From the NCBI GenBank assembly GCA_034440375.1, contig JAWXBZ010000016.1:1-36900 (forward strand): 36,900 nucleotides of DNA, read 5' to 3'. The notes under the pieces were generated by a model that was given only the letters and a program-made list of their open reading frames with translations, ran no database searches and was not told the origin of the DNA. The position numbers were made by a program, and so were the translations under genes. Of this stretch, positions 27,640-29,082 are shown one piece after another (within the stretch, counting starts at the first letter, position 1; each line of letters begins with the position of its first letter). This stretch comes from Candidatus Eiseniibacteriota bacterium. Its GTDB lineage: Bacteria > Eisenbacteria > RBG-16-71-46 > JABDJR01 > JAWXBZ01.

Positions 27640-29082
27640 TCAGGCCGCCCGAAGCGGCAGCTGGACCGTGAACGTGGCGCCGTCGCCGGGACGCGAATCG
27701 ACGTGGATGCGGCCGGCGTGATTCTCGATGATGCGATAGCTGGCGGAAAGGCCGAAGCCATGCCCCTTCTCCTTGGTGGTGAAGGTCGGCTCAAACACTC
27801 GGGCGGCCACGGCGGCGCTCATCCCGGGGCCGTTGTCGCTCACGCTCATGATGATCTGGCCCCGGTCGGGCTCGTGGCGGGTCATGATGTGGATTTTCTT
27901 CTCGGGGACGTCGCACTCTTGTAATGCATCGGCGGCATTGGAAAAAAGATTCAGCAGCACCTGCTGAATCTGGGCCGGATCCAGCTGACCCATAGGCACG
28001 GCGGCGTCCAGTTCCAGCTCGAACTTGACGTTGTTGAACTTGTTTTGCGGCTTCACGAACTCGATCGTCTTGTTGATCATGTCATTCAGGTTGGCCGGCC
28101 GCTTCCGGGTTTCCTTGTGGGCCGCACTCATGAGGCCCGCGGTCAGCGTCACCATGTTGGACGTGTTTTCGTAGATGACCTCGGCGCACTTGCGCAACCT
28201 GGCATCGCCGTCGATCGGGGCCAGCATCAGGATCATCTGGGCCCGTCCGGAGATCGCCGCCAGGTAGTTGTTCAGCTCGTGACCGATCTCCGCCGCCATT
28301 TCCCCCTTGGCCACCATCCGCTCGGTCCGGATGAGAACGTCCTGGGCCTTCTTGAGCTGGACGTAGCGCATCGAGGCGTCGCGCACGAACACCAGCGGCA
28401 CGAAGAACAGGACAATGCCGAGGAACGACACGGAACCGAACGACAGCACGACCAGCGGCGACAGGAAGAGGAGCGCCAGGGACGAGACGATTTCCTCCGA
28501 GTAGCCGTAGTTCTGGCGCCAGGTGGGTATCAGTCGCTCACGGGAGGCCAGGGAGATGACGCCGGATACGAGAAACGTGTTGGCGAAGTGATAGGTCAGC
28601 CCGGAGAACAGGAATGGCAGGATGAGTCGGGCATCATTGAATCGGGTCAGGAACGCGGCGATCTGCTGGGCACCCGGGGTATCGGCGTGGGGCAGCAGGG
28701 TGACACCACCGGTGGCGAGAAAGACAACGCCGGCCAGCGCCGTCGACAGCGCCGATTGCGACGTGTTGAAAAGCGCCTTGAACCACTCCTTCTTCTGGAT
28801 CGCCAGGTTGGCGAAGAGCGTCGACGCACCCACTACCCAGAGCGATTTTTCCCAGCCGATCAGGAAGATGACGGCGAGGTTGAATGTCGAGGCCATGCTG
28901 ACGGTCCCCTGGCCGGTGAGCGTATTCAACCAGAGGAGTTCCGCCATGACGCACACCAGTGACCAAAGTGTCAGCTGCTGCCAGTCCCACGTCGCGATGC
29001 GGGTGGAACCGAGCACGATGGCCAACCCGGCCAGCCCGACGATGAGGGCAATGTAATACTGAACGTTTCGGTTGAGCAACAA
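27640..29082 (-). CDS. Membrane sensor histidine kinase (multi-TM N-terminus + HisKA + HATPase)
   Basis: EIGHELNN H-box, NLFSNAADA N-box, DNGPGM, FTTK, GHGFGL; real start probably TTG 29082 or 29079 behind AGGGGG, because the ORF-track extension overlaps oppD/F. Confidence 0.92.
   Translation of the reverse strand: MLLNRNVQYYIALIVGLAGLAIVLGSTRIATWDWQQLTLWSLVCVMAELLWLNTLTGQGTVSMASTFNLAVIFLIGWEKSLWVVGASTLFANLAIQKKEWFKALFNTSQSALSTALAGVVFLATGGVTLLPHADTPGAQQIAAFLTRFNDARLILPFLFSGLTYHFANTFLVSGVISLASRERLIPTWRQNYGYSEEIVSSLALLFLSPLVVLSFGSVSFLGIVLFFVPLVFVRDASMRYVQLKKAQDVLIRTERMVAKGEMAAEIGHELNNYLAAISGRAQMILMLAPIDGDARLRKCAEVIYENTSNMVTLTAGLMSAAHKETRKRPANLNDMINKTIEFVKPQNKFNNVKFELELDAAVPMGQLDPAQIQQVLLNLFSNAADALQECDVPEKKIHIMTRHEPDRGQIIMSVSDNGPGMSAAVAARVFEPTFTTKEKGHGFGLSASYRIIENHAGRIHVDSRPGDGATFTVQLPLRAA

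Follow-up and report, generated by a model that had tools for sequence, protein, structure and literature searches.

The window analysed here, a stretch of DNA of 36,900 nucleotides, carries on its minus strand two genes, 8,997 nt apart, whose products begin with the same type of membrane sensor and end in different outputs (Table 1). One encodes an orphan sensor histidine kinase and the other an HD-GYP protein, which is preceded by a micropeptide gene, a twin repeat and a conserved gene for a hypothetical protein.

Table 1. Features of the locus and a second peptide gene elsewhere in the genome.
Feature	Position	Strand	Basis or remark
MASE9-HD-GYP, predicted c-di-GMP phosphodiesterase, 453 aa	17282..18643	-	Pfam and intact motifs
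23-aa micropeptide gene MKWGWLALVLSVTLSVLPGKAGW, candidate ligand precursor	18726..18797	-	ORF and ribosome-binding site
Twin AGCGAAGCG repeat, possible regulatory site before the peptide gene	18855..18886	-	alignment of 23 loci
Conserved hypothetical protein, 248 aa, directly upstream of peptide gene	18914..19660	-	conserved position
CPBP/Rce1-like intramembrane protease	20652-21581	-	two genes upstream of peptide gene
Orphan sensor histidine kinase, MASE9-HisKA-HATPase_c, 480 aa, TTG start	27640..29082	-	Pfam
Putative phospho-acceptor His268 codon, H box GHELNN	28279..28281	-	sequence
MASE9 membrane sensor of kinase, residues 6-243	28354..29067	-	AF2 model; predicted ECF S-component fold
Opp/Dpp-type ABC operon	29174-34979	-	ends 91 nt before kinase
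Second GKAGW peptide gene, stand-alone	G000:C50:329-403 (L103:252-403)		adjoins GAF-AAA activator

The MASE9 sensor, its relatives and its outputs

The initial annotation had described one membrane sensor module coupled to two outputs about 9 kb apart, and both N-termini are indeed MASE9 domains in Pfam (PF20972; 28.3 bits for the kinase and 39.3 bits for the HD-GYP protein, gathering cut-off 24.3). BLASTP aligns them with 29% identity over 191 columns (E 2e-14), and all six segment pairs that had been aligned by hand fall in register in this alignment. The similarity of the transmembrane regions is significant, as none of 2000 full shuffles (maximum 77) and none of 2000 shuffles within ten-residue windows (maximum 96) attained its Smith-Waterman score of 196. 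Both output parts appear complete: the kinase retains its H, N, G1 and G2 boxes, with HATPase_c at 84.1 bits and HisKA at 26.6 bits, marginally below the cut-off of 26.9, and the HD and HHExxDGxGYP motifs of the HD-GYP protein are intact. The best NCBIfam matches of the kinase, AtoS and ZraS, both stay below their cut-offs and point to an NtrB-like kinase core. W40, N106, Y164 and N168 are kept in kinase-type and HD-type MASE9 alike, matching the conserved aromatic and Asn/Ser positions of the family, and the model of the kinase sensor is helical, in keeping with a polytopic membrane domain. Many other conserved positions are unlike in the two sensors (among them W51/P56, N68/D72 and Q109/V113); given these and the 29% identity, the two may read different ligands. 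A third MASE9 in the genome (L003:1270-2073, G000:C215) stands alone without an output domain. It scores 20.1 bits, below the Pfam cut-off, is linked by phmmer to both other copies with E<=2e-10, and could be a decoy, a co-receptor or a transporter.

The AF2 model of the kinase sensor (mean pLDDT 96.8) suggests an ECF S-component fold for MASE9. Its best match in a VIA comparison with 48,161 chains was NikM (4m5c; Z 15.4, rmsd 3.4, 187 aligned), and ranks 1-15 were all ECF S-components (Z 15.4 to 7.3), with MreD at rank 16 and the next row at 6.2. Foldseek gave no match with E<=0.001 for the same model, the best being RibU at 0.026. The NikM pocket is filled by a nine-residue loop of NikM itself, as described in PMC3945884, so a peptide stretch can occupy the pocket of an S-component. 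Unlike NikM, the kinase lacks a Met-His metal motif, and no more than five residues precede its helix 1; as it has no NikM-type loop, there would be room for a peptide supplied in trans.

Relatives of the kinase were found in 123 of 151 genomes of the class and those of the HD-GYP protein in 108, and the homologues carry the label Candidatus Eisenbacteria. A MASE9 profile built from the class matches 133 of the 151 genomes and none of the 15 genomes of family f16. At 50% identity, 8,335 clusters match the MASE9 profile; most MASE9s bear signalling output domains. An unrooted tree of 93 MASE9 domains has its 36 HD-type rows on one side of a branch with 100/100 support and the kinase-type and stand-alone rows together on the other. 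Because the HD-type domains split off on this branch, the sharing of the sensor is ancient, and a recent local duplication is ruled out. The gene order kinase-CCA-(M23)-IspB-RsfS-ArgS-PfkB-HD-GYP-PurM is kept whole in 7 of 40 kinase loci; in 8 the block is present and the HD-GYP gene missing in the fetched DNA (one of these ends at a contig edge), and 25 kinase loci sit outside the block.

Several further arrangements were noted among the relatives. Eight proteins (P0083, P0096, P0107, P0121, P0127, P0136, P0154 and P0163) contain two MASE9-like regions, a MASE9-GGDEF part being followed by a MASE9-kinase or MASE9-HD-GYP part. In family f2 the syntenic kinase copy keeps its His and has no N, G1 or G2 ATP boxes (G002, G003, G006 and G009), and the peptide-linked paralogue keeps the ATP boxes and has lost the His (L036:6462-7940, L038:6784-8223, L260 and L263 versus L035, L039, L041, L042, L010, L018 and L025). 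A heterodimer of these complementary half-kinases could restore activity. In families f10 and f17 the kinase lies downstream of an epimerase-like enolase-superfamily gene (L049, L053, L063 and L072), with a DUF1611 gene before it in L049.

No response regulator adjoins the kinase, as had been noted from the sequence at the outset: all 30 receiver-domain matches of the genome lie on other contigs, and only 3 of 40 kinase loci contain one. Nor does either flank hold a Trp-tailed small ORF, again as first annotated. The only orphan NtrC-type REC-AAA protein (G000:C34; matches in 21 of 151 genomes) was ruled out as a canonical phospho-acceptor on the grounds of this narrow distribution and of a Ser at the phospho-Asp position. 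Its closest homologues in f2 adjoin a GAF-AAA activator, and in G003 one lies about 3 kb behind a MASE9 kinase. On its own contig the Ser-bearing activator (L241:710-2191) is followed by a gene of the lipoprotein family described below, cut by the contig end (L241:1-485). In family f9, HD-GYP-PurM is followed by a sigma54 activator that has no receiver domain (L048:1077-2153, L052, L056 and L061), and sigma54-like sequences lie before the HD-GYP gene. The Opp operon, which adjoins the kinase only in f1 and f2, and the CPBP protease, present in the block only in f1, were both discarded as core members.

Micropeptides and lipoproteins with a common C-terminal tail

Among the 30 best HD-GYP matches, a set without family f9, 29 genes had upstream room, and 28 of these are preceded by a hydrophobic micropeptide ending in a Trp tail of the (K/R)(A/S)GW type. 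The wider tally of 40/51 HD-GYP genes includes loci reached through peptide matches and one duplicate. In f9 no such peptide lies upstream of HD-GYP (0/4 loci). Control genes of the same loci (PfkB, IspB, ArgS, CCA and GfoIdh) had such an ORF upstream in 0 of 60 cases, and PurM in 1 of 38, in a genome whose HD-GYP gene is lost. Tail codons vary synonymously across 28 micropeptide genes. Genomes with the kinase mostly retain the (K/R)(A/S)GW tail, and in the HD-only families f11 and f12 it has drifted (KYGWGG, GGHAWW, GGQSNWW). A peptide HMM, which served to find loci, matched in 58 of 151 genomes and misses known peptides.

The AGCGAAGCG pair occurs once in the whole genome and is conserved in the aligned loci, with variable spacing before the HD-linked peptide genes. 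Since it gave neither an Rfam match at E below 2 nor a consensus fold, a structured RNA is unsupported; the pair may serve as a binding site for a protein, such as the 248-aa product encoded upstream. The latter has no Pfam or NCBIfam match; its look-alikes in the Atlas include a cluster named LeuA-dimerisation-like, it is also found in Gemmatimonadota, and its gene is missing from the block in f9. The second peptide gene (C50) is preceded by repeats and has a sigma54-type site and a hairpin resembling a terminator; in 2 of 31 loci a peptide gene lies upstream of its neighbour, the GAF-AAA activator. A sigma54-type site also precedes the stand-alone MASE9 at C215. Strict sites of this kind, matching the sigma54 consensus, number 47 genome-wide.

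A second class of genes carries the same tail. Many matches to the tail pattern turned out to be C-termini of roughly 200-aa lipoproteins, with the sequence HFS-x-Y-x-x-G-(K/R)-A-G-W; the invariance of HFS and of the final W in our alignment A7 largely reflects the selection of its rows for both, and homologues without the tail exist. In loci selected without regard to the tail, 10 of 15 stand-alone MASE9s (mostly one family, f9) have such a gene within 1.5 kb, compared with 4 of 55 kinases and none of 34 HD-GYPs, so that 51 of 55 MASE9 kinases have none nearby. In the sister genome G001 a GKAGW-tailed lipoprotein gene lies directly behind the direct orthologue of the kinase on the same strand, and the corresponding gap in the window measures only 83 nt. 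In one kinase clade two of three paralogues have lipoprotein partners ending GTADW. At L034:10390-13032 in G001, a GTADW-tailed lipoprotein gene is flanked on one side by a MASE9 kinase and on the other by a divergent MASE9 protein of 504 aa whose C-terminal half gives no Pfam match. The genome of the window holds four members of the family: C108 ends GKAGW, C127 ends in GKAGW plus 14 residues, C34 is the truncated one and C209 has no tail. The lipoprotein profile matches 90 of 151 genomes (19/19 in f14 and f15, 1/15 in f16) and none in f6, f12 and f13, though MASE9 is present there.

The model of the C108 lipoprotein is a beta-sandwich (pLDDT mostly >89 over residues 71-190) in which H180-F181-S182 lies in the turn between strands 173-180 and 183-188, before the last strand. 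It resembles the ZU5 domain of ankyrin (Foldseek E 9.7e-6; VIA Z 13.2, rmsd 2.5, 119 aligned) and the GAIN domain of CD97 (VIA Z 10.3, rmsd 2.7, 117 aligned). By sequence, one of ten lipoproteins gave a Pfam ZU5 match below the cut-off (E 0.011) in a search for ZU5/GPS, and a PDB search with the lipoprotein profile returned only matches with E>=0.09. On the model, a ZU5/GAIN-B-type fold is predicted, and the lipoproteins are predicted to cleave themselves at HF|S like adhesion GPCRs.

Because MASE9 is shared and the same tail occurs on micropeptides and lipoproteins, the Gly-Lys-Ala-Gly-Trp tail is likely the common signal. Our preferred reading, to which we assign a probability of roughly 0.58, is that GKAGW-type tails, as micropeptide or self-cut fragment, are the ligand of both MASE9 proteins and tune both outputs. 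The micropeptides themselves also allow another view. Most measure 12-26 aa with one hydrophobic stretch immediately before the tail, and many begin with acidic residues and not with a basic signal-peptide n-region, which would suit membrane-anchored accessory subunits, such as MgrB and SafA, that modulate MASE9 within the same cell and are not released. However, in f17 and G019 two or three hydrophilic core repeats follow a single leader, as in processed pheromone precursors, and the tail also terminates soluble lipoprotein domains; we therefore regard accessory subunits as rather unlikely, though the best of the alternatives. Micropeptide genes also occur in tandem arrays.

Retention of the tail alongside the kinase

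A search with the class-built profile and for relatives found the kinase as the sole MASE9 in 11 genomes, which are not independent because they come from about four related families and their assemblies are incomplete, and in which a diverged MASE9 could have been overlooked. Peptide genes were verified in 9 of the 11 (G013, G014, G022, G034, G039, G070, G073, G118 and G124), G060 and G105 lying outside this check. Seven of the nine genomes are 94-100% complete and the other two 86% and 68%. In G013 the HD-GYP gene is gone and the peptide gene still in place. In the 19 genomes of f14 and f15, none of which was matched by the HD-GYP query, the tail pattern G-(K/R)-(A/S)-G-W-stop gave 44 matches versus 18 in the reversed control. 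The 15 MASE9-free f16 genomes yielded 3 matches versus 15 in the control, which is chance level, and these three are not peptide genes.

Direct adjacency of peptide and kinase is rare. A KAGW-type micropeptide lies directly upstream of one of 55 kinases, and tail-bearing genes adjoin kinases in G001, G003 and G010 and at five loci of f2. In G010 both the peptide gene and the repeat element are found upstream of the kinase and are absent before HD-GYP. The five f2 loci hold His-less kinase paralogues with their own W-repeat peptide gene just downstream; such peptides are missed by the tail-pattern count downstream of kinases and were counted separately.

That the peptide almost always adjoins HD-GYP and not the kinase would also be expected if the tail were read only by HD-GYP and stand-alone MASE9, with the kinase sensing a small metabolite. 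The ancient split of the two sensor types and their differing conserved residues speak for this, and so does the fold, which is shared by the kinases BtsS, YpdA and KinB (PMC11109136, the text and supplements of which, as far as searched, do not name MASE domains): known sensors of this fold bind small metabolites, BtsS for instance pyruvate (PMC11109136, PMC10653868). The kinase described here shares with BtsS, YpdA, KinB and NikM the predicted fold, including an extra N-terminal helix, and gives no 5TM-5TMR_LYT match in Pfam. The retention of peptide genes in the kinase-only genomes argues against a metabolite sensor, however, as do the tail-bearing genes next to kinases and the position of kinase-type and stand-alone MASE9s on the same side of the tree, and we consider it unlikely.

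A still smaller chance is given to G(K/R)AGW being a C-terminal sorting or turnover tag, which MASE9 would bind to export, anchor or clear envelope proteins. The tail does end lipoproteins, its commonest neighbour is a stand-alone MASE9 without output domain, and an S-component fold can serve as a transporter; yet micropeptides of leader plus tail, tandem arrays and internal core repeats are a poor fit for sorting substrates, and most MASE9s carry signalling outputs. Finally, it is very improbable that MASE9 is merely promiscuous and that the two genes are neighbours only through an old housekeeping block, for although CCA-M23-IspB-RsfS-ArgS-PfkB lies between them and most kinase loci sit outside the block, this explains neither why the tail is retained together with either receptor nor why it is absent from f16.

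A proposed peptide signal and its relation to known systems

On the preferred reading, the kinase, with its intact orphan sensor, would recognise a short peptide with a G-(K/R)-(A/S)-G-W terminus, MASE9-HD-GYP would be controlled by this ligand family too, and one signal would thus set the phosphorylation output and c-di-GMP breakdown together. The tail would have two sources. Products of the micropeptide genes (18726-18797 and G000:C50:329-403) would be exported and trimmed, and lipoproteins with the predicted ZU5/GAIN-type beta-sandwich would cleave themselves, giving a piece some 10 residues long, S-x-Y-x-x-G-K-A-G-W. Comparable to an adhesion GPCR's tethered agonist, this piece may remain in the sandwich as its final strand until something displaces it. 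In either form the tail would fit into the outward-facing pocket of the S-component fold, which is lined by W40, E48, N106, Y164 and N168. Export and cleavage are inferred here, as are the binding of the tail and the direction of the response. As sigma54-type sites precede several genes of the system, an autoinduction loop is suggested. More tentatively, and with less than even odds, the system may be a split bacterial counterpart of an adhesion GPCR, in which a lipid-anchored self-cut protein cages the GKAGW agonist for MASE9 and the micropeptides are its diffusible form; release of the caged agonist by force, damage or unfolding would then act on the MASE9 kinase and on c-di-GMP turnover. 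The original suggestion of one peptide family for both proteins has thus gained comparative support from sequence, whereas for its phosphorelay part no partner was found.

The present analysis adds the co-retention of the tail with an orphan kinase, the predicted S-component fold and the ZU5/GAIN-like lipoproteins, a second candidate source of ligand beyond the earlier peptide idea. MASE9 is widespread with a ligand so far unnamed, and this locus and its relatives offer one testable answer. If correct, it would name the ligand of MASE9, provide a microbial GAIN fragment with its first role in signalling and show that peptides also signal through membrane receptors in an uncultured lineage that is probably diderm, since Lol and Lnt genes are present.

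MASE9 has been described as a promiscuous domain fused to HD-GYP, HD-GYP-GAF-GGDEF and GGDEF-EAL, for which an intramembrane ligand site was suspected (Galperin and Chou, bioRxiv 10.1101/2021.11.05.467447). The MASE9 passage of that preprint names no kinase fusion, stand-alone form or ligand, and the word peptide does not occur in its main text; its Figure S5 may show more architectures. A peptide near hdgA is likewise unmentioned in the accessible part of PMC6205966. Our literature searches, which left subscription journals largely uncovered, returned no MASE9 kinase, no MASE9 ligand and none of these lipoproteins.

Microbial GAIN (MAIN) domains cleave at HF|S, and according to the preprint describing them no signalling has been tied to the C-terminal fragment (Brogan and Rudner, bioRxiv 10.64898/2026.05.12.724683); the terms lipoprotein and histidine kinase do not occur there. 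To this open point the locus gives a testable answer, namely a five-residue tail with two sources and two read-outs. The lipoproteins described here are alike in their predicted ZU5/GAIN-B fold and in the position of HFS, which lies in the turn leading into the last strand. They differ in that their best structural match is the ZU5 domain of ankyrin and not GAIN, in that their genes sit by an unrelated membrane receptor and, because the lipid anchor is N-terminal, in that the C-terminal piece would be an unattached peptide, about 10 residues long and ending in the conserved tail. A link of GAIN-like domains to MASE9 was found in no paper searched.

The pairs AgrD-AgrC, ComC-ComD and ComX-ComP likewise combine a small precursor gene with a polytopic kinase. 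The likeness consists in this small precursor gene, the multi-pass membrane kinase and possible autoinduction. An adjacent LytTR-type response regulator and a processing or export gene, which characterise the Agr and Com systems, are lacking here as core members: the contig has no receiver domain, and the CPBP protease and the Opp operon are neighbours only in f1 and in f1 and f2, respectively. The system at this locus differs further in that its receptor belongs to another family, the kinase core is NtrB-like and a second output acts on c-di-GMP.
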